Assembly: GCA_036504555.1 (NCBI GenBank)
Contig: DASXUZ010000080.1
Location: forward strand, 4,003-68,002
DNA length: 64,000 nt
Direction of reading: 5' to 3'
From: Prolixibacteraceae bacterium
Lineage (GTDB): Bacteria > Bacteroidota > Bacteroidia > Bacteroidales > Prolixibacteraceae
This document shows, in pieces, positions 14,262 through 61,276 of the stretch (its first letter is position 1; each line of letters begins with the position of its first letter). Position numbers and translations under genes: made by a program. The notes beneath the pieces are model-generated. The model saw only the letters and a program-made list of their open reading frames with translations, had not been told where the DNA came from and did not search any database.

Positions 14262-14433
14262 TTGCACCGTTTGCACGATTTGCACGATTTGCACGCCTGA
14301 TAGTTTTATTTGATCCAGTTCAATGGTTTGTTCTTTTGAGAAAGGGAAAGTAGAAAAAGGGAGAAAATGTAAATCGTGAGAATCATGCAAACCATGCAAA
14401 TCGTGCAAAACGTGCAAAACGTGCAAAGTGCTC
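14262..14433. repeat. Foldback element family 1, copy A: 4x TTGCACGAT-like 9-mers, spacer, 7 inverted 9-mers
   Basis: TTGCACCGT TTGCACGAT TTGCACGAT TTGCACGCC ... TGCAAATCG TGCAAAACG TGCAAAACG TGCAAAGTG CTC. Homologous over its whole length to 37426-37569. Confidence 0.92.
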
Positions 14434-14602
14434 ATTAAATGGCAGTATGCGGGGTGGGTAGATTTATACTTGCTCTTTGGGTTTTACCCCCATGGATGAT
14501 CGGGCAAACTTATTGGCAATGTTTTAGTATAAAGTAACCACTCAAATTATTCCAGCGGAATGCATTTCTGTGAAGACCCGTTTTTAAAGATCTATGCCAA
14601 AA

Positions 14603-14636
14603 TAGACCTATTACTCGAGACACGACAATAGGTCTA
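14603..14636 (-). terminator. Hairpin overlapping the apbE stop codon
   Basis: 10-bp stem TAGACCTATT / AATAGGTCTA. Confidence 0.55.
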
Positions 14637-15641
14637 ATCCTCTTCCACAATCATTTTCTTCATTCCTTCCGAGAAGTAAACCTCATAGACGCCCTCGGGA
14701 TTGCTGTACACAAAATAAACTTCAATTCCCTTTAGTTTTGAAAGCAGTTCCTTGCTTTTGTCAATTCCCACGACCATAAAAGCAGTTGCCCAGGCATCAG
14801 CCGTGATGCAATCATCACATACGACCGTGGCACTCAACAAGGTATTGCGGGCTGGGAATCCTGTTTTAGGATCAATCGTATGGGCATATTTCACCCCATC
14901 CTCCACAAAAAACTTCCGATAGTTTCCAGAAGTGGCAAGGGCTTTGTTGTCAATTTCGATGATCGCCTCCAGGTCGTTACCAGGCATCATATTGCCCTCT
15001 GAAGGCCGATCGATGCCAATGTGCCACAATTTATCCTTGCCATTGGTCCCTTTTCCCCGAACTTCTCCCCCAATTTCAACGAGGTAATTTTTAATACCTT
15101 TCTCTTTAAAAAAATCACAGACAACATCTACCGAATAACCCTGGGCAATGGCATTCACATCGATTTTTACACCAGGATATTGCTTGATCACTTTATGGCC
15201 TTCAAGTTTTACCTTATCCATTCCAACATATTGCAGCAAGCTGTCGATGTATGCTGTATCGTGCTTGGCAACAGGGCCATTTCCAAACCCCCAGGCACTA
15301 ACAACAGGGCCAACGGTAATGTCGAAAGCTCCTCCTGAAACGATGTTCACCTCAGCCGATTTATTGAAAACTTCCACGAACCAGTTGTCAGCTTCAACGG
15401 TGGGATCATTGTTGTTAATCCTTGAAATAATAGAGGTTGAATCGTAAATGGAAAGTGACCGATCAAAAGCCTTCAGAATGGAGTCAATGTCAGTGCTGTA
15501 ATCCTTGTTGTTTGAATTCTCATAGGTAATGTGGTAGGTAGTGCCTTGTGCAAATCCTGAAATCTTCAGGTATTCACTTTTTTTATCCCGGCAGGAGGCC
15601 ATTAACAGAATGGATATCAATGCAAGAAAGGTAAATTTCAT
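14634..15641 (-). CDS. apbE: FAD:protein FMN transferase (lipoprotein)
   Basis: Lipobox LMASC, GFAQGTTYHI, IDVNAIAQGY, EIGGEV, ATSGNYR, HTIDPKTG and ADAWATA. Start placed at MKFTF. Confidence 0.95.
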   Translation of the reverse strand: MKFTFLALISILLMASCRDKKSEYLKISGFAQGTTYHITYENSNNKDYSTDIDSILKAFDRSLSIYDSTSIISRINNNDPTVEADNWFVEVFNKSAEVNIVSGGAFDITVGPVVSAWGFGNGPVAKHDTAYIDSLLQYVGMDKVKLEGHKVIKQYPGVKIDVNAIAQGYSVDVVCDFFKEKGIKNYLVEIGGEVRGKGTNGKDKLWHIGIDRPSEGNMMPGNDLEAIIEIDNKALATSGNYRKFFVEDGVKYAHTIDPKTGFPARNTLLSATVVCDDCITADAWATAFMVVGIDKSKELLSKLKGIEVYFVYSNPEGVYEVYFSEGMKKMIVEED

Positions 15642-15819
15642 GGCTATTGTGTTTGCTGATTGGTAAATTTTCATGACAAATGTAGAATATATAAGCTAGG
15701 CCAACAAATGATCAGCTTAGAGGTTGAAAGTTTCTTTTCCCATATTGAAACCTACTTTTCATTTTAATCATTAATTTGGTGCCCGATAAAATTAACACAA
15801 GAATTCAAATATAGAACCC

Positions 15820-16710
15820 ATGAATGGTATTCGATTATTCGCTTTCATCGCCCTTTGCATGATCTCACTGATTTCATCCGCAGCTCCCGACAAAAAGGAA
15901 GAGATAAAACTTCGCCTCTTTAGAGGGGAACATTATACCTATGACATTACCCAGGAAAATACCATTAAGCAGGATCCCGGGGATGAAGTCATGTTGTCAC
16001 AAAAGATTGGATTAAAAATCCGCCAGGATGTAATTGAAAGGCTCGGAAACGGAAACTTCGTGATGGAAGCTTCCTTCCTGAGTTTCAATTTATTCATGGA
16101 TCACAAAGGAATCAAGCAACGATACACTTCAGATACAGTGAATGTTCAAAATAAATTGTACAAATCATTGAACTTTTTGACGACCATCAAACTGAACTAT
16201 GAAGTTTCGCCCGAGGGGGTGGTAAGTAAACTAACTGGATTCGAAACCATTACAGAATATATCCAATTCGATCCAGAGTTGTCCAGGCTGCTCCGATGTT
16301 TCGGCAGTGAAGAGTTCATGACTGAATTTTACAATTATATTCCTGCCCAAAATGTTGCAGTGGGTGACCATTGGAGCGCAGGAGGAATTTTGCCCGATAT
16401 GATGAAATTGAAATACGACATTCTCTATACCCTCAAGGAGGCATCGGTTCAAAACCTGACACTGAACAGGGGAGCCTCTTTTAACTATTCAACTGAGGTA
16501 CCCCTGGCGGGCGACAAAACTGGCCAGCTCAATGAAACCGGATCCCAAAAAGGCATTCTGATCCTTGATCCAAAAACACACATGTGCATATCCTCTGACT
16601 TGGATCAGCAAATAGAGATTAACTTGCCCAGTGAAAACAAACCAGATGAAGAAAAAATCACCCCCCTAAAAGTGAATACCCGTACAAAAATACTTTTGGT
16701 AAAAAAATAA
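15820..16710 (+). CDS. Secreted hypothetical protein (DUF6263-like)
   Basis: Signal peptide, an LRLFRGEHYTY...Q pattern, and P.QNVAVGDHW typical of this Bacteroidota family. Confidence 0.65.
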   Translation: MNGIRLFAFIALCMISLISSAAPDKKEEIKLRLFRGEHYTYDITQENTIKQDPGDEVMLSQKIGLKIRQDVIERLGNGNFVMEASFLSFNLFMDHKGIKQRYTSDTVNVQNKLYKSLNFLTTIKLNYEVSPEGVVSKLTGFETITEYIQFDPELSRLLRCFGSEEFMTEFYNYIPAQNVAVGDHWSAGGILPDMMKLKYDILYTLKEASVQNLTLNRGASFNYSTEVPLAGDKTGQLNETGSQKGILILDPKTHMCISSDLDQQIEINLPSENKPDEEKITPLKVNTRTKILLVKK

Positions 16711-16808
16711 ATGAACACCCATTGAAGGTAAATGGGTCAAGTGCCTGAATATTTGAAATGATTGCCTAATTTTGAATAGCGGCTTGTAACTCTCTTCAAC
16801 CAGCAATC

Positions 16809-17348
16809 ATGAAACAGGCACCACGACGGTTTGATATCAGACGAATCATTATTTTCGTTCTTCTGGTCACTCTTATGACCCTAATTGCCTCGCTGACCAT
16901 CGGTAAAGAGATATATAAAAGCAATGAGAACGGACTGTTCTCCTTTGCCATTGTGAATTTTTCGGGCTATCTGTTCTTCTTTCTCTTTATGCCCATTGAG
17001 CTGGCCTTCATCATTTACCTTCACGCTGGGTACGATCCCCTGATGCTCAACCTGGTGGCATTGTCAACAGCCATTGGTTCACAGGCCATCGATTACCTGA
17101 TCGGATATTATTTCAGCACCGATATTATCGACCGCTTGATAGGCCGCAAACGGTATGAAAAAGCAGAAGATAAAATCCACCAATACGGCAACCTGGCCCT
17201 ATTTTTTGGCAATTTCCTACCCGTTTCGTCCCCTGTGATTTCACTGGCTGCGGGTATGCTCAAATATAGGATCAAAAATGCCTTGTTTTTCAGCACCTGC
17301 GGATTGATCTGCCGATACGTTTTACTTACACTGATTTTTTCAAGCTAA
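16809..17348 (+). CDS. DedA/VTT (SNARE-associated) membrane protein
   Basis: Hydrophobic; GSQAIDYLIGY and FFGNFLPVSSPVISLAAGMLKY. A TAATTTTG box lies at 16767-16774. Confidence 0.8.
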   Translation: MKQAPRRFDIRRIIIFVLLVTLMTLIASLTIGKEIYKSNENGLFSFAIVNFSGYLFFFLFMPIELAFIIYLHAGYDPLMLNLVALSTAIGSQAIDYLIGYYFSTDIIDRLIGRKRYEKAEDKIHQYGNLALFFGNFLPVSSPVISLAAGMLKYRIKNALFFSTCGLICRYVLLTLIFSS

Positions 17349-17379
17349 GAATCCTTCGTTCAGACCTTCAGACATTGAA

Positions 17380-18213
17380 TCATAGCAAGTCCGCTTCCAG
17401 CAACAGCTCTTCCATTTCTACCTGAACATTGATCGCTTCGTTACGTGCCTTTTCGGCAAAGTCCACACCATCGGATGCATAAATAATCTGGCGCGATGAA
17501 TTGACCAGCAATCCACACTTGTCGTTCATGCCGTATTTGGCCACCTCTTCCAGGCTTCCACCTTGTGCACCAACACCGGGGACCAACAGAAAATGATCAG
17601 GAACCAACTCCCTGATTTCTTCCAGCTTCTCGGCCTTGGTAGCTCCTACCACATACATCATATTATCGGTAGTTCCCCATTGCTGCGAGGTTTTAAGCAC
17701 TGTTTCAAACAATTGTTCCCCTGTTTCAGCATTCTTCAGAAATTGAAAATCGGAGGCTCCCTTGTTCGAAGTCAAGGCCAGCAGAATGACCCAGCGGTCA
17801 AGGTAAGTCATAAACGGTTTGATGGAGTCTTCGCCCATGTAAGGAGCAACAGTGACGGCATCAAAATCCATGTGATCGAAAAATGCCCTTGCATACAGAT
17901 TCGAGGTGTTGCCTATATCGCCACGCTTGGCATCGGCAATAATGAATTGTTCAGGATACTTCTCCCGGATATACTTCACCGTTTTTTCAAGGCTGATCCA
18001 TCCGGCCACTCCCTGGCTTTCATAGAAAGCAAGGTTGGGTTTATAGGCCACGCACAAATCCTGTGTGGCATCAATAATTTCCTTGTTGAAGGCAAAAATA
18101 GGATCACTCGTCTCATTCAGGAAACGGGGAATCTTCAGAATATCCGTGTCCAATCCGATGCACAGGAAGCTGCGCTTCAGTTTGATCTGTTCAAAAAGTT
18201 CTTCTCTATTCAT
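17380..18213 (-). CDS. pyrF: Orotidine-5'-phosphate decarboxylase (type 2)
   Basis: [44 protein letters not shown] and NSSRQII. Confidence 0.97.
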
Positions 18214-18218
18214 GTGTT

Positions 18219-18384
18219 AAAAAAAGATTACACGGATTTCAAAAAAAAAGATTACACGGATTGCTTCCATGTTTTCTTATTTCTTATTCCTCATTTATTA
18301 TTTCTTATTTCTAATTTGAAATGAATGATTAACCATCCAACCATTTAACCATCTAACCCTTCAACCATCTAACCATTAACCATT
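18219..18384. repeat. Three adjacent simple-repeat blocks filling the prfA-pyrF spacer
   Basis: 2x AAAAAAAGATTACACGGATT (18219, 18243); 7x 7-bp TTTCTTA-like (18273-18321); 7x 7/8-bp AACCATCT-like (18331-18384). Confidence 0.9.
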
Positions 18385-19468
18385 AGATTTCAGCTTCCTT
18401 CAGTCTCTCGGCATTTTCCTCCACCTGAAGCTTGTCGATGATTTCATCCAGATCGCCGCCAACGACAGCCTGGAGGTTATAGATCGTCAGGTTGATACGG
18501 TGGTCGGTGATTCGTCCCTGTGGCCAGTTATAAGTTCGTATTTTGGCTGAACGGTCCCCGGTTGATACCATCGTTTTGCGTTTCGAGGCAATGACATCGA
18601 GGTATTTCTGATGTTCCTGGTTGTAGATACGGGTACGCAACTCGATCATCGCCTTTGCAAGGTTCTTGATCTGCGATTTCTGATCCTGGCAGGTCACCAC
18701 GATTCCCGTTGGGATATGGGTCAGACGGATGGCTGAATAGGTCGTGTTAACCGACTGCCCTCCAGGCCCTGATGAACAATAGGTATCTTTGCGGATGTCG
18801 CTGTCTCTTAGATCGATGTCGAACTCTTCGGCTTCTGGCAACACTGCCACTGTTGCAGCCGAAGTATGAACGCGACCTGCAGTTTCAGTTTGAGGTACAC
18901 GCTGCACACGGTGAACGCCCGATTCATATTTCATGATCCCATACACGCCTTCACCCGAGATGGTGGCCACAATTTCCTTGTACCCCCCTGAAGTGCCTTC
19001 ACTGGTGTTGGTTACTTCCATGCGCCAACCCCGTCGTTCGCAGAACTTGGTGTACATGCGGAATAAATCGCCTGCAAAGATGCTGGCCTCATCGCCACCT
19101 GTACCCGCCCTGATTTCAAGGATGGCATTTTTGCCGTCTTCGGGATCAGCCGGAATGAGCAGCAATTTGATGTTTTGTTCCTTTTCGGCAATGACAGCTT
19201 CCGAAGCTTCAATTTCTTCCCGAGCCATTTCGCGCAGATCTTCATCGGTTTCCTCGGCCAGCATTTGCTTGCCCGATTCAATATTGTCGATCGTTGCCTT
19301 GAATTCCCTGAACGCAGCGACCAGTAATTCAAGCCTTTTATATTCCTGATTTAATTTGACGTAGCGTTTCATGTCGCTCATCACCGATGGATCAGTGATT
19401 TGCGTTCCTACTTCTTCGAACCGATACTTAATCGATTCGTATTTTTCCATTAATGAATAGTCTGCCAT
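18383..19468 (-). CDS. prfA: Peptide chain release factor 1
   Basis: GGQ motif (SSGPGGQSVN), PxT motif (VPQTE), YESGVHRVQRVP and IRTYN; no internal frameshift. Confidence 0.97.
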   Translation of the reverse strand: MADYSLMEKYESIKYRFEEVGTQITDPSVMSDMKRYVKLNQEYKRLELLVAAFREFKATIDNIESGKQMLAEETDEDLREMAREEIEASEAVIAEKEQNIKLLLIPADPEDGKNAILEIRAGTGGDEASIFAGDLFRMYTKFCERRGWRMEVTNTSEGTSGGYKEIVATISGEGVYGIMKYESGVHRVQRVPQTETAGRVHTSAATVAVLPEAEEFDIDLRDSDIRKDTYCSSGPGGQSVNTTYSAIRLTHIPTGIVVTCQDQKSQIKNLAKAMIELRTRIYNQEHQKYLDVIASKRKTMVSTGDRSAKIRTYNWPQGRITDHRINLTIYNLQAVVGGDLDEIIDKLQVEENAERLKEAEI

Positions 19469-19538
19469 ATATAATAAGATGATAGATGTTTGATAAAAAA
19501 GATATTAGACCAATGCCTGGGTATTCCGCAGGGCGTAG

Positions 19539-20708: not shown

Positions 20709-20740
20709 ACAATCTGAATTACCGAATCAATTTTGTGCCG

Positions 20741-20748
20741 CAAAGTTA
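20741..20748 (-). promoter_or_regulatory. -7 promoter box for purM-prfA-pyrF
   Basis: The minus strand reads TAACTTTG, 33 bp upstream of the purM start. Confidence 0.6.
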
Positions 20749-22800: not shown

Positions 22801-22809
22801 ACAATAGCC

Positions 22810-23384: not shown

Positions 23385-23488
23385 CAGTTAGTTTTTATAT
23401 CCCTCATGGATGGTTCATACATGGTTTATGGATCTAAACATACACAAAGCATGCACGAACTATGCACGAACAAAGTAAAAACCATGAA
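23385..23488 (-). repeat. Foldback element family 2 (104 bp), copy A
   Basis: The minus strand reads TTCATGGTTTTTA CTTTGTTCGTG CATAGTTCGTG CATGCTTTGTG ... TAAAAACTAACTG and aligns without gaps to 61173-61276. Confidence 0.9.
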
Positions 23489-25828: not shown

Positions 25829-28018
25829 TTATTTCACGAATAATAATTCCCTGTATTTTGGCAATGGCCACAGTTCGTTGTCCACGATCAACTCAAGTTT
25901 GTCGATGTGGGTACGAATATCATCCAGATAAGGTCGTACAGTCTTTTCGTAGGCGTAAGTCTTTTCCTTTTCAGTTTCAATGATATTGGCCACTTTTCGG
26001 GCTTCGATCAACTCTTTTACCTTGGCTTTGATGGAAGAAACATGACCACCAATTTCCCTGATCAGTTCAAGACGGCCTTCAGCAAGCGATTTATATTCAT
26101 CATCGCTGAATACGAGTTTCAGGTTCTTCACGTTTTCAAGCAACATTGACTGGTACTGAATAGCAACAGGTACGATGTGGTTAATGGCCAAATCGCCTAA
26201 CACGCGGGCTTCGATCTGGATCTTCTTGGTGTATTTTTCCAATTCAACTTCGATACGTCCTTCAATTTCTCTTGGGCTCAACACACCCATTTTGCCATAC
26301 ATTTCAATGACGCGTTTGTCGTGCAATGCTTCCAGAGCAGTAGGAACGCTGGTAATGTTGGTCAAGCCGCGTTTGGCAGCTTCCACTTTCCATTCATCGC
26401 TGTAGCCGTTACCGTCAAAGCGGATGGCTTTAGATTCGATGATCAGTTTTTTCAATACCTGGAAGATGGCTTCGTCTTTTTTAATGCCTCCTTCAACCAA
26501 TGCATCTACTTCTACCTTGAATTTAACCAGCTGATCGGCTACGGCAGTATTGAGTGCAATCATGGCAGAGGCACAGTTTGCAGAAGAACCTACAGCACGG
26601 AATTCAAAGCGGTTACCGGTAAAGGCAAACGGAGAAGTACGGTTACGGTCGGTGTTGTCCAGGATGATTTCAGGAATACGGCCGATGTTTAGTTTAAGAG
26701 CTGTTTTTTCATCCGGGGTCATCTTGCGGTCAACGACAGCTTCTTCCATCATATCCAACATTTTGCTTACTTCAGTTCCGAGGAAAGCTGAAATGATTGC
26801 AGGTGGAGCCTCGTTTGCACCCAGGCGGTGTGTGTTGGGAGCGGTCAGGATGCTGGCGCGCAACATGTCCTGGTTCACATGCAAAGCCTTCAGGGTGTTG
26901 ATCACAAAAGTGAGGAACTGAAGGTTTGATTTTGGGTTTTTCCCGGGGGAATATAAGTTAACACCCGTATCAGTGGCCAATGACCAGTTGTTGTGTTTTC
27001 CAGAACCGTTGATCCCGGCGAATGGTTTTTCATGAAAAAGAACGGCAAAGTTATGACGACGTGCAATCTTTTTCATCAAGTCCATGATCATCTGGTTGTG
27101 ATCATTGGCCAGGTTACATTCTTCATAGATAGGGGCCAATTCGAATTGGTTGGGAGCAACCTCGTTGTGACGAGTCTTACAGGGGATTCCCAATTTGTAT
27201 GCTTCGTTTTCCAGGTCTTCCATGAAACGGAATACGCGGGTAGGAATTGAACTGAAATAGTGGTCATCCAATTGCTGATCTTTTGAAGCAGAATGTCCCA
27301 TCAGGGTACGTCCGGTCATCACAAGGTCAGGGCGGGCCATAAACAAGGCTTCGTCAACCAGGAAATATTCCTGTTCCCAACCTAAATTGGCGCTCACCTT
27401 GGTCACATTCTTATCAAACATCTGGCACACGTCAGTGGCAGCTTTATCAACAGCAGCAAGCGCCCTCAGAAGCGGGGTTTTATAATCAAGTGCTTCGCCG
27501 GTGTATGAAATAAAGATGGTAGGAATACACAATGTATTGTCAACGATAAAAGCGGGAGAAGAAGCATCCCAGGCCGTATAACCGCGGGCTTCGAAAGTTT
27601 GACGGATACCTCCACTGGGGAAAGAGGAAGCATCAGGTTCCTGCTGAGACAACATTGACCCGGACAAAGATTCAACAACCGTCCCATTTTCACCATGAAC
27701 AACAAATGCGTCATGTTTTTCGGCTGTGCCATCCGTTAATGGGTGAAACCAGTGTGTAATGTGAGTGGCTCCATTTTCCAGAGCCCATGCTTTCATGCCC
27801 TGAGCAACCTGATCAGCCATTTTGCGATCGATGGCCGTTGCATGGTCAATTGCATCCACAACTGCCTTATAAGCCTCTTTCGACAGGTATTTCTTCATTT
27901 TCGTACGATCGAATACACACATGCCGTAAAAATCAGAAACCAGGTTGTCTTCTCTTTTAACTTCTACCGGTTTTCTACGAAGAACTTCTTCCAAAGCCCT
28001 AAATCTGAATTGTGCCAT
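25829..28018 (-). CDS. glnA: Glutamine synthetase type III
   Basis: 729 aa; THWFHPLT, EPDASSFP, GWEQEYF, HNEVAPNQFE, HEKPFAGINGSGKHNNW and NRTSPFAFTGNRFEFRA. Confidence 0.96.
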   Translation of the reverse strand: MAQFRFRALEEVLRRKPVEVKREDNLVSDFYGMCVFDRTKMKKYLSKEAYKAVVDAIDHATAIDRKMADQVAQGMKAWALENGATHITHWFHPLTDGTAEKHDAFVVHGENGTVVESLSGSMLSQQEPDASSFPSGGIRQTFEARGYTAWDASSPAFIVDNTLCIPTIFISYTGEALDYKTPLLRALAAVDKAATDVCQMFDKNVTKVSANLGWEQEYFLVDEALFMARPDLVMTGRTLMGHSASKDQQLDDHYFSSIPTRVFRFMEDLENEAYKLGIPCKTRHNEVAPNQFELAPIYEECNLANDHNQMIMDLMKKIARRHNFAVLFHEKPFAGINGSGKHNNWSLATDTGVNLYSPGKNPKSNLQFLTFVINTLKALHVNQDMLRASILTAPNTHRLGANEAPPAIISAFLGTEVSKMLDMMEEAVVDRKMTPDEKTALKLNIGRIPEIILDNTDRNRTSPFAFTGNRFEFRAVGSSANCASAMIALNTAVADQLVKFKVEVDALVEGGIKKDEAIFQVLKKLIIESKAIRFDGNGYSDEWKVEAAKRGLTNITSVPTALEALHDKRVIEMYGKMGVLSPREIEGRIEVELEKYTKKIQIEARVLGDLAINHIVPVAIQYQSMLLENVKNLKLVFSDDEYKSLAEGRLELIREIGGHVSSIKAKVKELIEARKVANIIETEKEKTYAYEKTVRPYLDDIRTHIDKLELIVDNELWPLPKYRELLFVK

Positions 28019-28339: not shown

Positions 28340-29578
28340 TTATTTCTTTTTCTTTCTGGATTTGACTGTTTGGGCTGTTTTTTCTTCTTCCACCATCAGG
28401 GCTTTCCAATCGTTGGGATTATCCTCCGACAAATCGATGGTGGCCGTGTAGTCTTCCTTGTTGATGAGCAGAACTTTTACTTTCTGATCCAGGAATGTTT
28501 CAATTTCATCCAGAACAGGTTTTTCTTCAGGGCTGCAAAATGAAACGGCCAGCCCCTTTTTCACCCCGCGTCCGGTTCGTCCGACGCGATGTACGTAGTT
28601 TTCGGCCACTTCAGGCAAATCATAATTGATTACATAATCGACATCGGGGATATCAATGCCCCTTGCACTGACATCAGTGGCAATAAGAATTTTCACCTCT
28701 CCGGTCTTAAAGCGGTTCAACACATCGATCCGGTCCTTTTGATCCTTATCGCCATGGATGGTGAGGCTTTCGATCTCCACCCTCTCCATGGCCTTAAAGA
28801 CCCTTTCGGCCCTGACTTTTGTACGGACAAATACCAGAATCTTTGAATCAGGATGTTCTTTGACCAATCGCTCCAGGAAATAGCGCTTGTCATCCATATC
28901 GATCATTGCCACCGAATGGGTTACATTTTTAGCCACCGGATTCTTGGGCGATATCTCTATACGAATGGGATTTGAGGTCAGTGAATATGCCAATTCCTTG
29001 ATTTCAGGACTGATGGTCGCTGAAAAGAAGAGCGTCTGCCTGCTTTTGGGAAGATGGTGGATCAATTGCCGAATGTCGTTGATAAACCCGAGTGCCAACA
29101 TGTGATCCGCCTCATCGAGTACCAGCACCTGAATTTTATCCAGCAGGATGTGCCCCTGGCTCACCAGATCAAACATGCGGCCTGGAGTGGCGATTAAAAT
29201 ATCCACTCCGTTTTTCAAGGTCGATATCTGGGGATCCTGTTCAACGCCTCCAAATACACAGGCTGTTTTAACCCTTGTATACCGGCCAATGGTTTGAAAA
29301 ACCTCAGTCAGCTGCAAGGCCAGTTCGCGGGTAGGCACCATCACCAGGCAGAAAATATAATCGCTACGACTACTACTTTTTAATTGATGAATGATATCGA
29401 TCACAGGAATGGCGAACGCGGCTGTTTTGCCTGTGCCGGTTTGAGCAATGGCCAAAACATCATCTCCTTTCAGGATGGGAGAGATGGCTTTGTATTGAAT
29501 ATCGGTGGGCCGGCGAAAGCCTAAACTTTCAAGACTTCGTTTTATATCAGAAGAAATGCGGTAATCGTCAAATTTCAT
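28340..29578 (-). CDS. DEAD-box ATP-dependent RNA helicase
   Basis: Q motif, AQTGTGKT, PTRELA, TPGR, DEAD, SAT, ARGID and HRVGRTGR. Start at 29578 or 29587. Confidence 0.96.
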   Translation of the reverse strand: MKFDDYRISSDIKRSLESLGFRRPTDIQYKAISPILKGDDVLAIAQTGTGKTAAFAIPVIDIIHQLKSSSRSDYIFCLVMVPTRELALQLTEVFQTIGRYTRVKTACVFGGVEQDPQISTLKNGVDILIATPGRMFDLVSQGHILLDKIQVLVLDEADHMLALGFINDIRQLIHHLPKSRQTLFFSATISPEIKELAYSLTSNPIRIEISPKNPVAKNVTHSVAMIDMDDKRYFLERLVKEHPDSKILVFVRTKVRAERVFKAMERVEIESLTIHGDKDQKDRIDVLNRFKTGEVKILIATDVSARGIDIPDVDYVINYDLPEVAENYVHRVGRTGRGVKKGLAVSFCSPEEKPVLDEIETFLDQKVKVLLINKEDYTATIDLSEDNPNDWKALMVEEEKTAQTVKSRKKKK

Positions 29579-37354: not shown

Positions 37355-37425
37355 AGCTTCAGTTGATTTTTGGTTTTGAGATTCCAAATGTAATGAAAAA
37401 AACTATTTTGTAATTTTCATCATTT

Positions 37426-37569
37426 TTGCACACTTTGCACGATTTGCACGATTTGCACGGCTGTTGTTTTTAATCAATTTTGGTTCAAAGACTTGTTTTT
37501 TTGAGAAGGTGGAATAGAAAAGAGAGAAAATGCACATCGTACAAAACGTGCAAATCGTGCAAAGTGCTC
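37426..37569. repeat. Foldback element family 1, copy B (4 + 4 nine-mers)
   Basis: TTGCACACT TTGCACGAT TTGCACGAT TTGCACGGC ... TGCACATCG TACAAAACG TGCAAATCG TGCAAAGTG CTC, with the same central spacer as copy A. Confidence 0.92.
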
Positions 37570-37673
37570 TCCCAATTACCTTCCCCATCGAAAAAACAGG
37601 GCCATTCATCGAAAAAAATTGCAGCCTGATTGAATTCTCTCGATCTTCGTCTCAGAATTAAAAATCAACAATT

Positions 37674-38399
37674 ATGAAACTCAAGAAATTAGTGCTCATT
37701 AGCGGAATCCTGTTCTTTATTTCAGGATGTGGTGACTTTTTCATGATCTGTTCGCTGAACCACTTCTACCTGGAGAAAGATGTCACCCTGGCTCCCGAAA
37801 TTGAGGGCAGTTGGACTGTCCATCCGCTACGCGCCAAATCGGATACAACAGAGGATCAATCCAGCATCTGGCAATTGGCCGACACAACTTCTATATGGCA
37901 AATCAAACAATTCTTTTCAGAAGAGAAAGTAAAGACCAAAAGGGGCCAGGATTCTATTGTTTTCAAGCCTCAGAATCATTACGTTGTAAAACTGACGGGC
38001 CAACATCCAGATTCCATACGCTACCAATACCGACTGGATCTGTTCCGCATAAAGGGCAACTTGTATGCCGACTTCTGCGCTTATGAATCACCGGCAATAA
38101 AAGGCAGCCGGGTGGAAAAAGAAAATTACCTGACCGTACACACCCTTGCCAGGGTTCGAATTCACAATAAGCAACTGAATGTTTCGTGGCTGGGGTCGGA
38201 ATACATGCGAGACATGATTGAAAAGAAACATGTCAGGATTAAATACCATTATGTGCAGGATGCCCAACGATTGTTGCTCACCGCCTCATCGGAAGAATTG
38301 ACCAATATGATTGAGCGATATGCTGATCAAACGCGCTTTATTGACTGGCAAGACCAGCCTGCCATGTTACAATTAACTCCCATCAATCCACTGCCATGA
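37674..38399 (+). CDS. Hypothetical lipoprotein
   Basis: Lipobox FISGC; ATGA overlap with the downstream kinase gene. Confidence 0.8.
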   Translation: MKLKKLVLISGILFFISGCGDFFMICSLNHFYLEKDVTLAPEIEGSWTVHPLRAKSDTTEDQSSIWQLADTTSIWQIKQFFSEEKVKTKRGQDSIVFKPQNHYVVKLTGQHPDSIRYQYRLDLFRIKGNLYADFCAYESPAIKGSRVEKENYLTVHTLARVRIHNKQLNVSWLGSEYMRDMIEKKHVRIKYHYVQDAQRLLLTASSEELTNMIERYADQTRFIDWQDQPAMLQLTPINPLP

Positions 38400-39644: not shown

Positions 39645-39734
39645 GTGGTCAGGTGCAGTGGTCAGTCGCAGTGGTTAGCTAACCTGGCACTTGATCGGCA
39701 CGCAACCTGGAACTTTGAACTTGAAACTTGAAAC
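39645..39734. repeat. Short-repeat block: GTGGTCA-type 13-bp repeats, GATCGGCACGCAAC, then 4 heptads (TTGAAAC-like)
   Basis: Direct reading. The 14-mer at 39693-39706 is identical to 42516-42529. Confidence 0.8.
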
Positions 39735-39743
39735 TTTTATCCC

Positions 39744-42473: not shown

Positions 42474-42571
42474 CATGGAGCTTGGAGCAGGGGGCCTGGG
42501 GCACAGAACGCCCCCGATCGGCACGCAACGTTGAACTTTAAACGTTGAACCTTAAACTTTGCACTTTAAAC
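42474..42571. repeat. 14 in-phase heptads including GATCGGC-ACGCAAC and 6x NTTRAAC-like units
   Basis: CATGGAG CTTGGAG CAGGGGG CCTGGGG CACAGAA CGCCCCC GATCGGC ACGCAAC GTTGAAC TTTAAAC GTTGAAC CTTAAAC TTTGCAC TTTAAAC. Confidence 0.85.
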
Positions 42572-44798: not shown

Positions 44799-44902
44799 TT
44801 CATAGTTTTTACGCTCTTCGTACTAGGTTCGTGCATGGTTCGTGCATGTAAACATACATAATCATTGCAGGATCATGGTATCAATTCAGTAAAAACCAGG
44901 TA
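44799..44902 (+). repeat. Foldback element family 2 (104 bp), copy B
   Basis: TTCATAGTTTTTA ... GGTTCGTGCATGGTTCGTGCATG ... TAAAAACCAGGTA; ungapped alignment to copy C. Confidence 0.88.
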
Positions 44903-49842: not shown

Positions 49843-49868
49843 AGCTTCAATTTACGAAATATTATTCA

Positions 49869-54630: not shown

Positions 54631-54645
54631 ATAAACGATGGTGCA

Positions 54646-55200: not shown

Positions 55201-55357
55201 AATAGTTAGAATCTTTACAGGCCTTTAAAGTTAATAATTCCTTTGTGCTTTACAAAATGAATCCTTGAACAAAAACAATCCGTAAAAAGTTGTGTTTCAT
55301 TTAGGAAAAAAGAAACCATCATATTGAAATGAAGCGTGAAACTGAAATTAAAAGCTT

Positions 55358-56119
55358 ATGATCCAGGCTTGTTTTCGCTTTTATGAAGAGTTGAATGATT
55401 ACCTGCCTGAAGAAATGCGCCAGGAGTGGATTGAAAGTCAGATTGAAATTGTAGCATCAGTGGGAGAAATTATTCAATCATTGGGAATTCCATTGGAGGA
55501 GGTGGATTTAATCCTTGTAAATGAGCAATCCAGAGGGTTTGATTACCAACTCCATGATGGTGACCGGGTATCGGTATACCCGGTATTTGAATCGTTCGAT
55601 GTGTCAGAACTGAATCAGTTAAGGGAAAAGCCACTTCGCAATCCAAGGTTTATCTGCGATGTTCATTTGGGCCGATTGTGCAGATACCTGCGTATGTTGG
55701 GATGGGATACCCTTTATTCCAATCATTATGACCCGAAAGAAATGATTGAACTATCCCTCCAGGAAAAACGCATTCTCCTTTCACGAAGTATTCAAATCAT
55801 TCGCCACAAGGAATTGACCCATGCCTGGTGGGTCCGCTCTGCCAACCCTTTGGAACAGCTGAAAGACCTGGTGAATAAACTGGATTTATCAAAACTCATC
55901 AATCCATTGACCCGTTGCCTCAATTGCAATTATGAGCTGGCAGCCGTAGACAAAAGTGAAATACTTCAAGACCTGGAGCAAAGGACATCAACTTATTACA
56001 CTGAATTTTTCAAATGTCCCAACTGCCACCATATATACTGGAAAGGATCACACTATGAAAATATGCTCAAATTCATAGACCATCATTTGTTAAACAAAGA
56101 ATTCATTTCATGGCAATGA
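55358..56119 (+). CDS. Mut7-C protein: ubiquitin-like domain + PIN-type RNase + Zn ribbon
   Basis: FRFYEELNDYLP...EVDLILVN...GDRVSVYP; RFICDVHLGRL.RYLRMLG.DT; CLNC...CPNCHHIYWKGSH. Confidence 0.93.
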   Translation: MIQACFRFYEELNDYLPEEMRQEWIESQIEIVASVGEIIQSLGIPLEEVDLILVNEQSRGFDYQLHDGDRVSVYPVFESFDVSELNQLREKPLRNPRFICDVHLGRLCRYLRMLGWDTLYSNHYDPKEMIELSLQEKRILLSRSIQIIRHKELTHAWWVRSANPLEQLKDLVNKLDLSKLINPLTRCLNCNYELAAVDKSEILQDLEQRTSTYYTEFFKCPNCHHIYWKGSHYENMLKFIDHHLLNKEFISWQ

Positions 56120-56388
56120 AGTTAATTCCAATCAAAGTAGAAAGTCATTCGGGAAGCAAGGCTGATGAATATCCTACCAGCTTTTACTGGATGAACATTC
56201 AGTATGAAATCAAAGAAATAGCGGATCGTTGGTACCAGGCTCAAGCGACCCCAGAGAGCCCGGTAGCCAACTATTTTAAAGTGCGCACAGCCAGTAAACG
56301 TGTTTTTGTCCTCAAACATGAAATAGAAAGCGATCAATGGTATTTGGTTGCACCTGAACATCCGGGATTTGGATTTTCTTCCAATTGA
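56116..56388 (+). CDS. Small beta-rich hypothetical protein translationally coupled to Mut7-C
   Basis: ATGA overlap with the Mut7-C stop; VESHSG.KADEYP..F, EI.DRWY and YFKV...VLKHE...W pattern. Confidence 0.75.
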   Translation: MKLIPIKVESHSGSKADEYPTSFYWMNIQYEIKEIADRWYQAQATPESPVANYFKVRTASKRVFVLKHEIESDQWYLVAPEHPGFGFSSN

Positions 56389-56464
56389 TCATTGGATGAA
56401 TGCAGGCCCGATCTAATTGAAAAGCAAATTATTACTCTCCCAAATTAGGTTTTAATCTTAGCCC

Positions 56465-56535
56465 GCAATAACTACAATAACTTCAATAACGACAACAATG
56501 CCAATCGTAGTTATTGAAGTTATTGAAGTTATTGC
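56465..56535. repeat. Foldback of 9-bp units (CAATAACTT x3, 13-bp spacer, inverted x3)
   Basis: The 29-bp arms 56465-56493 and 56507-56535 match at 27/29 positions. Confidence 0.9.
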
Positions 56536-56639
56536 AATTGAGTATTTCAGAGTCTATGGTTTTGCAAACCGTCGCCCGATTCCCGGAAAGGAAGCTATGA
56601 AAAAATAACCGGCCCTGTTGAGAAGCCGGCTATTTATAT

Positions 56640-56825
56640 TTAATTGCAGATAGCCCTTCGGGATCGTTTAAATGCAAAGCTTAGATTCAACACGATGGAC
56701 AATCCGATGAATAGTCCCTCCAAAAAATCAACCACATGACTCCCCGGTAAAAACCTTCCCATCAAAAGGGCGATGGCCAGAAGGAGCGTTCCTATGGGAT
56801 AAGCCAGTAATTGTTGGTATTTCAT
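56640..56825 (-). CDS. Small two-TM membrane protein (61 aa)
   Basis: Two hydrophobic helices and a basic tail; 13 bp downstream of the adaptor gene on the same strand. Confidence 0.6.
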   Translation of the reverse strand: MKYQQLLAYPIGTLLLAIALLMGRFLPGSHVVDFLEGLFIGLSIVLNLSFAFKRSRRAICN

Positions 56826-56838
56826 TGTTCCTAAAGGT

Positions 56839-58179
56839 TTATTTCTTCACTTTAAACAACTCTTTTTCATCCACCTTTTTTACCTGTGTACTATCATTGA
56901 GCAATTTATTGATGGCATTAAAAGGAGCAACCACTATTTCATCTCCTGCTTTTAAACCTTCCAGTATTTCGATGTTCTCGCTATCCTGGATACCAGTCTT
57001 TACGGGTTGCTTGAATACTTTGCCTTCTTTGTACACAAATACCACTTCTACCTTTTCATCATCCTTTGATTTGGGTCCCTGGGTGGTAACCGCTTCAGTT
57101 TCGCCTTCAGGCTTTTCTTCGTCGTCCTTTTTAACTTCTTCCTTCACATTGCTCTTCAGTGAACGGGTGGTGACTGCCTGGATAGGTACCGAAATCACAT
57201 TCTTCCTGGTTTCAGTCTGAATATCGACTGTTGCCGACATACCGGGCCTGAAAGGATATTTCTTGCCTGAAACAGTATCGGTTAAATCTTTATAGGAGCT
57301 GTCGAGCAACAGGATTTTCACATTAAAATTGGTCACCTGGTCCGTTGAACCACCTACCACGTTGGCAGAATTGGCAATTTCGGTCACAATTCCCTTAAAC
57401 TTGCGGCCCAGGTAAGCATCCACTTCAACCAAAGCTGTATCGTTGAGGTTAACGCGGACAATATCATTCTCATTCACATCAACCTTGACTTCCATCAGGT
57501 GAAGATTGGCGATCACCAGCAATTCGGTTCCGGCATACATATTGGTCCCTACCACGCGTTCGCCCTTTTCCACATTCTTGCGTGAAACGGTTCCATCCAT
57601 GGGGGCATAAATCTTGGTTTTCACCAGCTGTTCCTGTGCCTCTGCCACCGATGCTTCAGCCGACTTAACGGCAAACTCTGCAGCCTTTACTTCCGACTGG
57701 GCCACTTTAAAGGAAGCCTGTGAGGTTTCAAAGTCTGAGACCGCAATGGCGGCTTGCTTGAACAAGGAATTGGAACGTTTAAAAGCCATATCGCTTTCAA
57801 TCAAACGGGCATCGGCCTGGGCCAATCGGGCCTGTGATGAGCTCAAACTTGCATTTGCCCTGTTGAGCGACTGGATGTAAATATCGGGCTTAATGACCAG
57901 CAAAAGCTCTCCTTTCTTGACTTCATCCCCTTCTTCAACGTCCATCTGGATGATTTCACCTGAAACATCGGGACTGATTTTGATTTCCGTTTCGGGCTGC
58001 ACCTTGCCATTGGCCGTGATTAACTCGGTGATGGTCTTGCTTTCAACCACCTTGGTCGATACATTAATCTCAAAGTCTTTCCCAAACCAACCTTGTTTTT
58101 TACCCACTATCAGGACAATGATCACAATTACCACCAGGATAATGATGTAAGGCAGAAATTTATTTGATTTCTTCTTCAT
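56839..58179 (-). CDS. Efflux periplasmic adaptor subunit (MacA/HlyD family)
   Basis: N-terminal TM, ANGKVQPETE.KISPDVSGEI, coiled coil, IYAPMDGTV, FRPGMSA and VISVPIQAV. Confidence 0.93.
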   Translation of the reverse strand: MKKKSNKFLPYIIILVVIVIIVLIVGKKQGWFGKDFEINVSTKVVESKTITELITANGKVQPETEIKISPDVSGEIIQMDVEEGDEVKKGELLLVIKPDIYIQSLNRANASLSSSQARLAQADARLIESDMAFKRSNSLFKQAAIAVSDFETSQASFKVAQSEVKAAEFAVKSAEASVAEAQEQLVKTKIYAPMDGTVSRKNVEKGERVVGTNMYAGTELLVIANLHLMEVKVDVNENDIVRVNLNDTALVEVDAYLGRKFKGIVTEIANSANVVGGSTDQVTNFNVKILLLDSSYKDLTDTVSGKKYPFRPGMSATVDIQTETRKNVISVPIQAVTTRSLKSNVKEEVKKDDEEKPEGETEAVTTQGPKSKDDEKVEVVFVYKEGKVFKQPVKTGIQDSENIEILEGLKAGDEIVVAPFNAINKLLNDSTQVKKVDEKELFKVKK

Positions 58180-58389
58180 TATAGATTGAATATTGAATTT
58201 GCAATATATGTATGGTTTAACTTTAAAATATTACACCCTTTCTAAAAATGTGCCTAATATTTCGAGCCGTTAAATTTAAGTGCAAAAACATTACGCGGAA
58301 TAAAATGTTATCCTTTTTTAATAATATTATTTCACGGGGGTTCGATTGATCTCCTGAATGAAAAGTTTCTGTAACAAAATACCGAGAGA

Positions 58390-59949
58390 TTGATGAACCA
58401 GGCAAATTTAAAAATTGAAACACCCCTTTCCGAACTGACCGGGAATAACGTACCACTGAAAGAGTTTCTGAATAATTTAAAGGCGAAGATGAAACTCGTT
58501 TTCCATGACCGAGCTAACATTGATCAATTGGCGATCAAACGCGGCATGCCTCCTTTTGTAATGCGTGAAATCATGAGTATGAACCCTTTATCGGTCGGAA
58601 TCCCCGCCGAATTTGGTGGCAGGGGCTGCAAAATGGAAGAGTGCATCGCCTTGCTGGCCACTGCCTCCTATGAATCCCTGGCCCTTTCGCTGACTTTTGG
58701 GATCAACTCGGCCCTGTTCCTTCAACCGGTTGCCAAATACGCACAACCTGAGGCCAAGGCTCCTGTGTTTGAACGATTCCTTCATCATCAGAACATGGGT
58801 GGCTTGATGATTACCGAACCCGATTTCGGCAGCGATGCACTGAGCATGCAGACTTCCTTTTCTGAAAAAAACGGCAAATACCATCTGAAAGGTACCAAAC
58901 ATTGGGCCGGACTGACCGGCTGGGCTGAATTCTGGCTCCTGACAGCACGTGAACGAAGCCAGGCTGGTGACCTCAAACGGGATATCGATTTCTTTATCTG
59001 TGACGTAAACAGCCCGGGACAAAACATCGTGGTTGAAGAGTTTTATGAAAATTTAGGACTTTTCCAGATCCCCTACGGGCGAAACAGGCTCGACGTTGAA
59101 ATACCAAAACTACAAAGGCTTACCCCTCATACGACAGGGGTAAAAATGATGCTCGATTTACTACACCGCAGCCGCATGCAATTTCCCGGGATGGCCATGG
59201 GATTTATCCAACGCCTGCTGGATGATTCGATCGCCCATGCCAACAACAGGCTAATTGGCGGAAGACCCCTGTTAACCTATGACCAGGTTCAGCAGCGATT
59301 GGGCCGCCTCCAGGCCTCCTACACCATCTGTTCGGCCATGTGTGCCAACAGCAGTTCAAAGGCAGGCATCGAAAACGATCTTTCACTGATCGGCTTTGAA
59401 GCCAATTCCGTCAAGAGCGTGGTGACCGACCTGATGCAGGAGGCCGCCCAATCGGCTACCCAATTGGTTGGGGCACAGGCATACAAGCTCGATCACATCG
59501 CCGGAAGAAGCATCACCGATAGCCGTCCATTCCAGATATTTGAAGGCTCGAACGACATCCTGTATGCCCAGATTTCCGAGAGCCTGGTAAAGCTGATGAA
59601 GAAATCGAAGGAAAGCAACCTGTTTCAATTCCTTCAACACTTTCACCTGACCTCCCAATCAGCCCTGTTGTTGAAAGATATGCTCGATTTTGATTTAAAC
59701 CTGGAACTGCCACAGCGCAAAATGGTGGAATTGGGCCAGATACTGGGTCGCATCGTATCATTTGAAATGGTGATCAACCTGGGCGAGAGCGGATACCGGA
59801 GTGATTTAATCGCCAATGGACTGCACTTCCTCAAACAGGAAATTGCCTCCCTATTCAAGGGATTCAATTTCAGCAATGAAATCATCGTGGTCGAAGATTA
59901 TCAGGAGGAAAGCAACTGGATGAATTTTATCCCTGCTGTTGGTTCCTGA
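58390..59949 (+). CDS. Acyl-CoA dehydrogenase family protein with C-terminal extension
   Basis: GLMITEPDFGSDA, LKGTKHW and FQIFEGSNDIL. Confidence 0.85.
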   Translation: MMNQANLKIETPLSELTGNNVPLKEFLNNLKAKMKLVFHDRANIDQLAIKRGMPPFVMREIMSMNPLSVGIPAEFGGRGCKMEECIALLATASYESLALSLTFGINSALFLQPVAKYAQPEAKAPVFERFLHHQNMGGLMITEPDFGSDALSMQTSFSEKNGKYHLKGTKHWAGLTGWAEFWLLTARERSQAGDLKRDIDFFICDVNSPGQNIVVEEFYENLGLFQIPYGRNRLDVEIPKLQRLTPHTTGVKMMLDLLHRSRMQFPGMAMGFIQRLLDDSIAHANNRLIGGRPLLTYDQVQQRLGRLQASYTICSAMCANSSSKAGIENDLSLIGFEANSVKSVVTDLMQEAAQSATQLVGAQAYKLDHIAGRSITDSRPFQIFEGSNDILYAQISESLVKLMKKSKESNLFQFLQHFHLTSQSALLLKDMLDFDLNLELPQRKMVELGQILGRIVSFEMVINLGESGYRSDLIANGLHFLKQEIASLFKGFNFSNEIIVVEDYQEESNWMNFIPAVGS

Positions 59950-59969
59950 AAAAGATGGCGCATTTTTTG

Positions 59970-59977
59970 TACTTTTG
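59970..59977 (+). promoter_or_regulatory. -7 promoter box upstream of the small GIY-YIG-like gene
   Basis: TACTTTTG matches TAnnTTTG. Confidence 0.55.
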
Positions 59978-60044
59978 CCCCCTGACCGGGACAACAGGAA
60001 TGAACCCTGCTGGGCGCTGAGGTAAAAAAAACGAATCTTATAAT

Positions 60045-60290
60045 ATGAAGTTCTATTCCTACGTTATATACTCGCAAACATCGGGTGCATTTTATTACGG
60101 TTATTTCGAAGATCTTGAAAAAGCACTCGAAATGCACAATTCAAACCTGATTTCACCCACCAAAGAGCGCGGCCCTTGGGTGCTGATGTATTCAGAAAGC
60201 TTTGAAACCCGGTTAAAAGCCATTCGGCAGATGAGTTTCTACCGATCGGTCAAAGGTCAAAGGTTTCTGAAAAATATGCTCAATTTCTAA
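60045..60290 (+). CDS. Small stand-alone GIY-YIG (UPF0213-like) protein, apparently lacking catalytic residues
   Basis: FYSYVIYS...FYYG..DLEKALEMHN...GPWVLMYSESFETRLKAIRQM follows the UPF0213 pattern. Confidence 0.8.
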   Translation: MKFYSYVIYSQTSGAFYYGYFEDLEKALEMHNSNLISPTKERGPWVLMYSESFETRLKAIRQMSFYRSVKGQRFLKNMLNF

Positions 60291-60435
60291 TCCGATGTGC
60301 TATTTTTGCAAAACTTTATAACGGAAGGTTCATCAACAAAGGTTTGTTAATAAATAATTGGTGGACCAGCTTCATTCTAAGAATTGTATGTTCGATCTTT
60401 ATTAAATTTGAAAGAAAAATTAATACGTTTAAGCC

Positions 60436-60954
60436 ATGAAAAAAATCATCTTAGTTGCTTTCACTCTTGCCCTGCTCACCAGTGGATGTAAGGTTTTCAA
60501 GTCATCTAAAAAAAGCCAGGCCGCAACCCCCAAAACAGAAACAAGCGCAGACACAAAAGTATTTTCAGTGCCCGCTCCCACCGGTGTACGCGACAATCCC
60601 ACTTCGGATACCATGTACGCACCAGCTGACAAACCCGTTGAGGGCACAGTAACCGGCAAACCCGTTTCAGTGCGCAGTGAAAATTTCACATTGACCTCTG
60701 AAGACCAGGCCGCTTATGGAAGCAAAAAATTCTTTGTCATTGTAGGTAGTTTCAGCAGCAACGAAAATGCCGGTAAATTCAAACAGGATTTAACCCAGCA
60801 GGGATTTAAGCCCATCATTCTGCACAGCGAAACTGGTTATTACAGGGTATGTGTCGACAGCTTCAACGACGAAGCAGCAGCCCGTAACCGCGTTCAGGGC
60901 ATCAGGACCCAATATCCAAAATACGCCGACAGCTGGTTACTGATCAGGAAATAA
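60436..60954 (+). CDS. SPOR-domain lipoprotein
   Basis: Lipobox LTSGC, linker, then FFVIVGSFS..NA...YYRV...A..WLL; -7 box TAAATTTG at 60403-60410. Confidence 0.92.
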   Translation: MKKIILVAFTLALLTSGCKVFKSSKKSQAATPKTETSADTKVFSVPAPTGVRDNPTSDTMYAPADKPVEGTVTGKPVSVRSENFTLTSEDQAAYGSKKFFVIVGSFSSNENAGKFKQDLTQQGFKPIILHSETGYYRVCVDSFNDEAAARNRVQGIRTQYPKYADSWLLIRK

Positions 60955-60978
60955 AAAATATTTCAGCATAAATAATCT

Positions 60979-61014
60979 AAAAAAAAGGGATATCGCAGGG
61001 TGTCCCTTTTTTTT
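60979..61014. terminator. Intrinsic terminator
   Basis: A8-GGGATATC-GCAG-GGTGTCCC-T run. Confidence 0.85.
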
Positions 61015-61172
61015 TGGCTTAAATCCTGTTGCACCGTCAGGAAAATACATGCTCCAGGATTTGAGCCAACTTACTGATCGATCATCCATTGAATAAATCC
61101 ATCCTATTTTGCCTGTCTTCAGCCTCGTGGATGGTTACATGAAGGATTCCCACCTATATGCTTATTGTTAGA

Positions 61173-61276
61173 TTCATGGTTTTTACATAGTTCGTGCATA
61201 GTTCGTGCATGCTTCGTGCATGTAGAGATATACAAACCATGCACGATTTATGCATAAATCATCTAAAAACCATGAA
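61173..61276 (+). repeat. Foldback element family 2 (104 bp), copy C, with perfect 13-bp terminal inverted repeats
   Basis: TTCATGGTTTTTA CATAGTTCGTG CATAGTTCGTG CATGCTTCGTG CATG...CATGCACGA...TAAAAACCATGAA. Confidence 0.93.

Follow-up and report, generated by a model that had tools for sequence, protein, structure and literature searches.

Foldback repeats with tandem-unit arms in a Prolixibacteraceae genome probably have a build, and not a recognition word, in common

The DNA analysed here is a 64,000-nt stretch of contig DASXUZ010000080.1 of a Prolixibacteraceae bacterium (the window; G000:C80:4003-68002), which belongs to an assembly (G000) of 5.24 Mb in 322 contigs; to judge by neighbouring genes, the organism falls in an uncultured genus of this family, in the Bacteroidota. 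The window carries five copies of two families of intergenic foldback repeats, Family 1 with arms of 9-bp units and Family 2 with arms of 11-bp units, and the units of both contain the heptamer TGCACGA. An earlier note on this stretch had taken the heptamer, present in opposite orientation in the two families, as a sign of a possible common recognition system. We found instead that Families 1 and 2 are probably separate lineages of selfish or near-neutral repeats, and that they belong to a large class of foldbacks whose members share a way of being built rather than a word.

RESULTS

Two foldback families account for the excess of TGCACGA in the window

TGCACGA occurred 19 times in the window, against an expectation of 6.07 +/- 2.41 calculated from 100 dinucleotide shuffles, none of which reached 19. 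This excess is explained by the five elements, two of Family 1 and three of Family 2, that hold 14 of the 19 occurrences. Family 1 proved to be just as the earlier note had described it, with forward heptamers 9 bp apart on the left (14272/14281 and 37436/37445) and reverse heptamers on the right (14401 and 37555), and Tandem Repeats Finder (TRF) placed 9-bp arrays on both arms of the two copies (14262-14295 and 14386-14427; 37425-37459 and 37531-37563). The description given for Family 2, TCGTGCA every 11 bp with TGCACGA on the right, was correct in part. Heptamers 11 bp apart were found on the minus strand at 61192/61203/61214 and 44829/44840 and on the plus strand at 23452/23463, but the exact inverse heptamer on the opposite arm (61240) was present only in copy 61173-61276 and was missing from that arm in the other two. 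Copy 23385-23488 is moreover inverted relative to its two sisters, so that orientation belongs to each insertion and not to the family; the 'opposite orientation' of the two families is meaningless for quasi-palindromes that lie either way round.

When the elements were folded as single-stranded DNA, both window copies of Family 1 were more stable than their shuffled counterparts (copy A, -23.5 kcal/mol, z -3.3), as was one of the three Family 2 copies. The spacer of copy A is conserved and asymmetric, runs for about 70 bp and is first T-rich and then purine-rich. Copy 61173-61276 of Family 2 is bounded by 13-bp terminal inverted repeats, and in the genome-wide consensus of this family a weak palindromy extends about 12 bp beyond each end.

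Families 1 and 2 are dispersed between genes, and the Family 1 sites are empty in relatives

A BLAST search of the whole genome located about 23 Family 1 loci and about 27 Family 2 loci, the copies being 70-92% identical to those of the window over the aligned stretches. Both families are multi-copy, dispersed and intergenic. Housekeeping genes such as trkA/trkH and apbE adjoin their approximately 50 loci, and the copies point either way with respect to the adjacent genes. Family 1 copies have in common a left array, the asymmetric spacer of about 70 bp and a right array, with a number of units that varies; they measure about 140-170 bp with their inverted arms, and some 15 of them also share, to varying extents, the non-palindromic flanks that surround copy A (14125..14622). 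Family 2 measures 104 bp. Its consensus shows one well-kept arm containing two or three TTCGTGCATAG units (column identity 0.8-0.99); the second arm is degenerate, and pairing is possible at only about 64% of the arm positions.

Neither family contains an open reading frame (ORF). A small ORF in the right arm of Family 1, consisting of a Shine-Dalgarno-like purine tract, an ATG and QIV repeats, was rejected because the base that varies in the unit is the second of its codon, the changes between units are non-synonymous and copy A has a stop codon straight after the ATG. Likewise, a 32-aa hydrophobic ORF (14439..14537) was discarded, neither its start nor its frame being conserved across copies. 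A search of Rfam returned only sub-threshold look-alikes of microRNA precursors, as expected of any long hairpin.

Whole-element BLAST found neither Family 1 nor Family 2 in 18 congeners and 12 other genomes of the same order. A pattern scan of 49 congeners revealed 9-bp heptamer doublets in three of them (G047, G016 and G063), and the copies of G047 are diverged relatives of Family 1, with TTGCACGAA as their unit, the purine tract unchanged and the spacer similar; the 11-bp heptamer doublets of congeners look like chance or coding matches. Among 185,579 species genomes, the loop motif of Family 1 gave three chance matches, and the two that were inspected (L206 and L208) are apparently coding. 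Part of the long Family 1 flank (window 14496-14579) has a weak match, of 73%, at five contig ends of congener G006 (C162, C151, C115, C60 at positions 56-139, and C133), which suggests another repeat or the end of a mobile element.

Comparison with congeners showed that the Family 1 copies of the window are inserted DNA and that their sites are empty in congeners. Convergent trkA-like and apbE-like genes are separated here by a 604-bp spacer, most of which is occupied by copy A with its long flanks; the same spacer measures 13-23 bp in six congeners (L058, L062, L063, L066, L069 and L109). The spacer of copy B, between divergent genes, measures 286 bp here and 118-145 bp in eight congeners; the difference matches the element of about 141 bp, and the congeners keep the adjacent region with its two CATCGAAAAAA repeats. 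Since the region of copy A is base-for-base identical in two independent public assemblies, one holding the whole element and the other a Logan contig that ends within the foldback, it is not an assembly artefact. A comparison of strains by way of identical proteins yielded identical contigs only. The two direct CATCGAAAAAA repeats themselves (window 37570-37640, upstream of the gene 37674..38399) are conserved in the genus (spacers L252-L274), perhaps as an operator or promoter element with no connection to the neighbouring foldback.

The two families belong to a large class of periodic foldbacks

The earlier note had also supposed that the window samples a wider class of periodic foldbacks, and this was borne out. 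We searched the genome for TRF arrays with an inverted array of the same unit within 300 bp and obtained 279 foldbacks, with periods of 7 (72 elements), 8 (67), 9 (51), 10 (1) and 11 bp (88); a second run of the census gave 282, or 54 per Mb. The same census returned none in 1 Mb of shuffled genome, and none in 200 kb of congener G012 or in 208 kb at the apbE locus of 25 congeners. Another congener, G035, has such a foldback (see below), and the class is therefore not restricted to this species. Clustering by unit sequence resolved about 30 families. A period of 10 bp is nearly missing, being used by a single element.

All but one of the 279 foldbacks are intergenic. Convergent gene pairs enclose 80 of the 243 placeable ones (33%), compared with 13% of spacers in general, and 24 lie between divergent genes. 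Foldback edges fall within 15 bp of a stop codon in 30% of cases and within 15 bp of a start codon in 11%.

Evidence on how these palindromes are kept came from the best-sampled family, the 11-bp ATCTGTAATGT one, to which the window element 4626-4747 belongs. The family has 58 copies genome-wide, all with four units per arm, and we analysed the 48 full ones. Their core is invariant, and it is enclosed by a 14-bp outer stem that is specific to each copy. At the positions of this stem, identity between copies is 0.29-0.5, except for two conserved CC positions (0.7-0.8), whereas pairing within copies reaches 0.81-0.94, with one position at 0.69. Pairing stays above background for about 15 bp into the non-homologous flank (0.35-0.62, against a between-copy identity of about 0.27), and this palindromy into the flanks was seen in a subset of copies, for example on C219, C134 and C124. 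The stems thus diverge between copies yet pair within them, and so either selection or a step in which one arm is copied onto the other keeps the palindromes. The possibility that the outer stems are target hairpins that existed before insertion was rejected, the stem motif never occurring in the genome without the core.

Across the class, arm mismatches compatible with G-U pairing were about equally numerous on the two strands (511 vs 501), and neither strand is therefore marked as RNA. Family 2 alone gave 145 vs 96, but these are not independent events, because differences present in the consensus are inherited by all copies.

The three further foldbacks that the earlier note had listed in the window are all real (z -22, -8.9 and -4.8 for those at 4626, 56465 and 62450), although the last belongs to a family whose unit is the 8-bp ACACATAG and not a 9-bp one. 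Its position is upstream of the minus-strand gene 61407..62429, some 20 bp from the start. Other copies of this family (for example C29:7036 and C74:195) also adjoin gene starts, with similar T-rich TTTCAT contexts on both sides that may be a duplicated start region. The window further contains heptad arrays at 39693-39736 and 42474-42571, with the 14-mer GATCGGCACGCAAC, that belong to the largest 7-bp family (AGTTTAA/AGTTCAA units); in copies of this family the tandem units are outermost and the inner stem is GTTGCGTGCCGATC.

TGCACGA is not enriched outside Families 1 and 2

If the heptamer were a signal in general use, it would be expected beyond the two families. In the whole genome TGCACGA occurs 417 times, which is below the median 7-mer and compares with 338 expected from a maximal-order Markov model. 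Family 1 contributes 59 of these occurrences and Family 2 another 55; the rest fall in coding sequence (267, with 241 expected) and in other intergenic DNA (36, with 24 expected). The density of the heptamer is 61 per Mb in coding sequence and lower, 41 per Mb, in other intergenic DNA.

A Family 2 copy was found within 30 kb of two Family 1 copies, about three being expected, so that the families do not co-localise. Alignment of the two consensus sequences scored 23, against 19.2 +/- 2.4 in shuffles (P = 0.085). A common 7-mer or longer word was found in 7 of the 435 possible pairs of unit families, compared with a mean of 4.1 (maximum 10) in shuffled units (P = 0.11), and several of these seven pairs are evident relatives, such as ACACATAG and ACACATAGG. 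There is, in addition, no gene common to both families, and none of the genes considered below as possible cargo or transposase has TGCACGA arms. On every count that could be tested, the results therefore spoke against the common recognition system that the earlier note had proposed.

Small four-helix-bundle genes lie between arrays of the same build

We also looked for inverted arrays that enclose DNA. Arrays lying far apart proved to be mostly a trivial product of neighbouring complete foldbacks, and the search was restricted to orphan arrays. It turned up small genes of PF05635 (23S_rRNA_IVP), the S23p/four-helix-bundle family, to which the protein Avd of diversity-generating retroelements is related. 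With the hidden Markov model of the family, four PF05635 genes and no others were detected in the genome, each tightly flanked by arrays of short period (7 or 8 bp). Three have inverted arrays on both sides, with the units AAAGTAAC, GGATGGTT and TAATGGT, respectively; the fourth, on C195, lies between direct TATTTAC arrays, with an inverse AAATTGT array about 100 bp further. TGCACGA arms flank none of the four.

The association also held for most of the genes sampled in relatives. In a set of 30 PF05635 loci from the genus and the order, 29 had an adjacent 7-9-bp array, 21 had arrays on both sides and 15 had the same unit inverted. At the 29 loci from other genomes, array density was 5.7 per kb up to 170 bp from the gene, compared with 0.9 per kb in the remainder of the same loci (Poisson P ~1e-26).

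In the C65 cassette, array, gene and array replace the spacer between a kinase gene and recR, from the upstream stop codon to the recR start codon, and at this junction 26 of 29 congeners have a spacer of 76-79 bp and no PF05635 gene. Congener G035 carries at the same junction (L180 1277-1420), directly after the stop codon, a gene-less 8-bp foldback with the arms AAAGTTAC/AAAGTACC. The G035 foldback and the C65 cassette arose from independent insertions at this site.

About 70 places in the genome match the left arm of the C107 cassette, and many of these form opposed pairs that stand too close together to leave room for a gene. The idea, also put forward in the earlier note, that the foldbacks are emptied or non-autonomous cassettes of one mobile system is supported to this extent: the Family 1 sites are empty in congeners, four elements with other units hold a PF05635 gene, and one arm recurs without room for it. 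A fuller version we consider rather unlikely: tandem-unit foldbacks would be the gene-less progeny of a widespread, so far unrecognised type of mobile cassette, in which an S23p/Avd-like four-helix-bundle gene is enclosed by inverted short-unit arrays, and its pentameric protein would read the periodic arms. Were it true, co-evolution of unit and protein would account both for the number of unit families and for the discreteness of the periods, and Families 1 and 2 would be orphans, their master copy being lost or unassembled.

Table 1. Foldback elements of the window and PF05635 genes of the genome (window positions unless a contig is given)
Feature	Coordinates	Strand	Description
Family 1 copy A	14262..14433	.	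9-bp TTGCACGNT units on the left (14262-14295), inverted units on the right (14367-14433)
Longer repeat unit around Family 1 copy A	14125..14622	.	Extents of homology among copies
Family 1 copy B	37425..37569	.	Short form lacking the long flanks; divergent promoter region; fold z -4.3
Family 2 copy	61173..61276	+	Three tandem 11-bp units (61186-61221); fold z -4.3
Family 2 copy	44799..44902	+	Two 11-bp units (44826-44848), second arm degenerate; fold z -0.9
Family 2 copy	23385..23488	-	Two 11-bp units (23451-23471); fold z -0.9
Member of the 11-bp ATCTGTAATGT family	4626..4747	.	Perfect palindrome, 59-bp arms, four units per arm; z -22
9-bp-unit foldback, CAATAACTA-type	56465..56535	.	13-nt loop; z -8.9
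Degenerate member of the 8-bp ACACATAG family	62450..62516	.	13-nt loop; z -4.8
PF05635 gene	C107:26686-27273		Outside the window
PF05635 gene	C29:7-624		Outside the window
PF05635 gene	C65:24599-24992		Outside the window
PF05635 gene	C195:31264-31848		Outside the window

DISCUSSION

The evidence presented above is best accounted for if the elements inserted at gene junctions and spread, as selfish or near-neutral DNA, in the manner of MITEs (miniature transposable elements with inverted repeats), of REPINs (hairpins formed by two repetitive extragenic palindromic, REP, sequences) or of the intervening sequences (IVS) of rRNA genes. Such spread would go through a step that needs or regenerates the hairpin, and the copies would come to lie mostly close after stop codons, positions in which they might incidentally serve as structures at which transcripts end or are processed. 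What would matter is the build, periodic arms in inverted order, and not any particular word. If this is so, the TGCACGA common to Families 1 and 2 would be a coincidence or a trace of remote ancestry and not the site of one protein.

A different emphasis would place the function of the elements in RNA. The transcribed arms would form a long duplex that is cut by RNase III, or that ends or stabilises the upstream mRNA, and the sequence of the units would be irrelevant. The closeness of foldback edges to stop codons and the excess between convergent genes agree with this, as does the location of S23p genes between inverted arrays in the present genome; the 23S rRNA IVS of Coxiella burnetii has a 28-bp stem of terminal inverted repeats and, before the S23p ORF, a variable number of tandem heptamers, and it is excised by RNase III (PMC4990558). 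However, arm mismatches showed no preference for G-U compatibility and the skew within elements was at chance, Families 1 and 2 lie in both orientations relative to their neighbouring genes, and two dozen foldbacks stand between divergent genes. We therefore regard a role in RNA as doubtful, though deserving of consideration. It is compatible with the spread of selfish or near-neutral repeats, since it concerns the effect of the elements and not their origin.

It could also be argued that the foldbacks are REPIN-like elements moved by the Y1 transposases of the genome (RAYT, that is, REP-associated tyrosine transposases, or IS200-like), which would act on single-stranded hairpins. The genome does have four Y1_Tnp genes; two of them are flanked by hairpins of the classical REP type and another (C66:13819-14088) lies between inverted modules, each with a doublet of the 9-bp unit GTTACTAAG. 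The C66 gene, however, carries an in-frame stop and is truncated, and GTTACTAAG is not among the units of the abundant foldback families. TGCACGA arrays flank none of the four Y1 genes, three of which are near contig ends with their flanks partly unseen. Besides, in the arms of Families 1 and 2, which consist of repeated TTGCACGNT or TTCGTGCATAG units, we saw no internal palindrome and no GTAG/CGTC-type conserved tetranucleotide, and these arms are not self-folding REPs. This mode of movement thus appears quite improbable for the foldbacks. As for the C66 locus itself, a module of about 42 bp, repeated in inverted runs on the two sides, brackets the truncated gene, whose in-frame stop is a TAG (C66:13431-14702), and modules with the GTTACTAAG doublet recur at C65:1503-1868 and at C66:18958-19226, 26494-26670 and 29013-29206.

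Several observations weigh against our view that Families 1 and 2 are independent, inserted lineages that share a build only. No empty site was found for any Family 2 copy; the one locus tested (61173) gave none because its neighbouring genes are not syntenic in any of 29 congeners. The alignments of both families show no clear target-site duplication, element boundaries being ragged, and no autonomous copy or gene between TGCACGA arms was found in the fragmented assembly, so that transposition is something we only infer. With 322 contigs and 35 foldbacks at contig edges, a master copy could be unassembled, and every negative result on associated genes is accordingly limited. Two further points concern the word itself. 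In G047 and G016 the linker of the 9-bp unit has changed, from TTGCACGAT to TTGCACGAA, and the heptamer has been kept; and the exact 23-mer of Family 1 units, (TGCACGATT)n, recurs often in 9-bp-periodic arrays of metagenome-assembled genomes (MAGs) of Acidobacteria. Both would fit some constraint on TGCACGA. We read the recurrence in Acidobacteria as probably a coincidence, because 185,579 genomes were scanned and the repeat class is present in many phyla. The acidobacterial arrays (L021-L057, for example in SZAS-14) contain at least 2.5 copies of TGCACGATT, together with GCACAAAAC and GTATCAAAG units, are multi-copy and are mostly not foldbacks; PF05635 genes were looked for beside them and none was found.

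These two points, and the presence of the heptamer in exact and iterated form in both families, are what would speak for TGCACGA as the iterated site of one DNA-binding protein, be it a regulator, a nucleoid protein or a transposase. We hold this to be very unlikely: the heptamer is not enriched beyond the two families, spacings of 9 and 11 bp would place successive sites on differing faces of the helix, the families have nothing else in common, some 28 other unit families have the same build with unrelated words that are shared at near-chance level, and the 11-bp doublets of congeners look like chance or coding matches. With the failure of the shared-word claim, no new regulatory or mobile system is opened by the heptamer.

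The foldbacks resemble several repeats described before. In Geobacter metallireducens, paired inverted arrays of three to five units of 7-9 nt were reported as putative sites of a global regulator and divided into classes 1-3 (PMC2700814), Xanthomonas has convergent pairs of the heptamer GGGAATC (PMC4692102), and heptamer direct repeats are known from Beggiatoaceae, Cyanobacteria and Bacteroidetes (PMC4679880). As in Geobacter and Xanthomonas, tandem units here are opposed, over a distance that varies, by their counterparts on the complementary strand, occur in tens of dispersed, mostly intergenic copies and fall into several unit classes within one genome. Judged by three or more tandem units of 7-9 nt that face their inverse at short, variable distance, Family 1 belongs with these arrays and Family 2 does so loosely, owing to its 11-bp unit and its degenerate arm. 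The present genome differs from those in its approximately 30 unit families, in its 11-bp periods and in its Bacteroidota host; besides, some families here are of fixed length with copy-specific complementary outer stems, and some carry a four-helix-bundle gene.

With the S23p IVS, the four cassettes of this genome and most of the sampled PF05635 loci of its relatives have in common a build of terminal inverted repeats that form a long stem, short tandem units beside the ORF and the S23p gene in the loop. Unlike an IVS, the elements described here lie between protein genes and not in rRNA, and Families 1 and 2 have no ORF. Our full-text searches gave no publication in which S23p genes are connected with arrays of heptamers or other tandem repeats, except in rRNA intervening sequences. 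REPs, bacterial interspersed mosaic elements (BIMEs) and REPINs (PMC3116915, PMC3733652) are similarly abundant, intergenic, hairpin-forming and lineage-specific, preserve their hairpins through changes on both arms and occur in genomes with Y1 genes; the arms of our elements, in contrast, consist of tandem short units and not of self-folding REPs of 20-40 bp, with no GTAG/CGTC tag seen, and there is no cognate Y1 gene flanked by the abundant units. Bacterial MITEs such as Correia and Nezha are, like both families, small and non-coding with terminal inverted repeats, and they are present or absent at orthologous sites, as is Family 1, but neither target-site duplications nor a parent insertion sequence was identified here. 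The arms of the eukaryotic Foldback (FB) transposons are also made of tandem sub-repeats. Iterons of replication origins differ from the present repeats in that they are confined to one rep/origin locus, whereas Families 1 and 2 occupy about 50 dispersed loci beside housekeeping genes.

Taken together, a single genome contains about 280 palindromes with tandem-unit arms, in about 30 families of unrelated units and with periods limited to 7, 8, 9 and 11 bp, and S23p/Avd-like four-helix-bundle genes are statistically associated with elements so built. Foldbacks of this kind break short-read assemblies, as the 35 at contig edges illustrate, and can be mistaken for operators or riboswitches. For more than 15 years such arrays have been on record in Geobacter, Xanthomonas, cyanobacteria and Beggiatoaceae without an explanation, and a cargo gene common across units offers an experimental handle both on the origin of the arrays and on the role of S23p outside diversity-generating retroelements.

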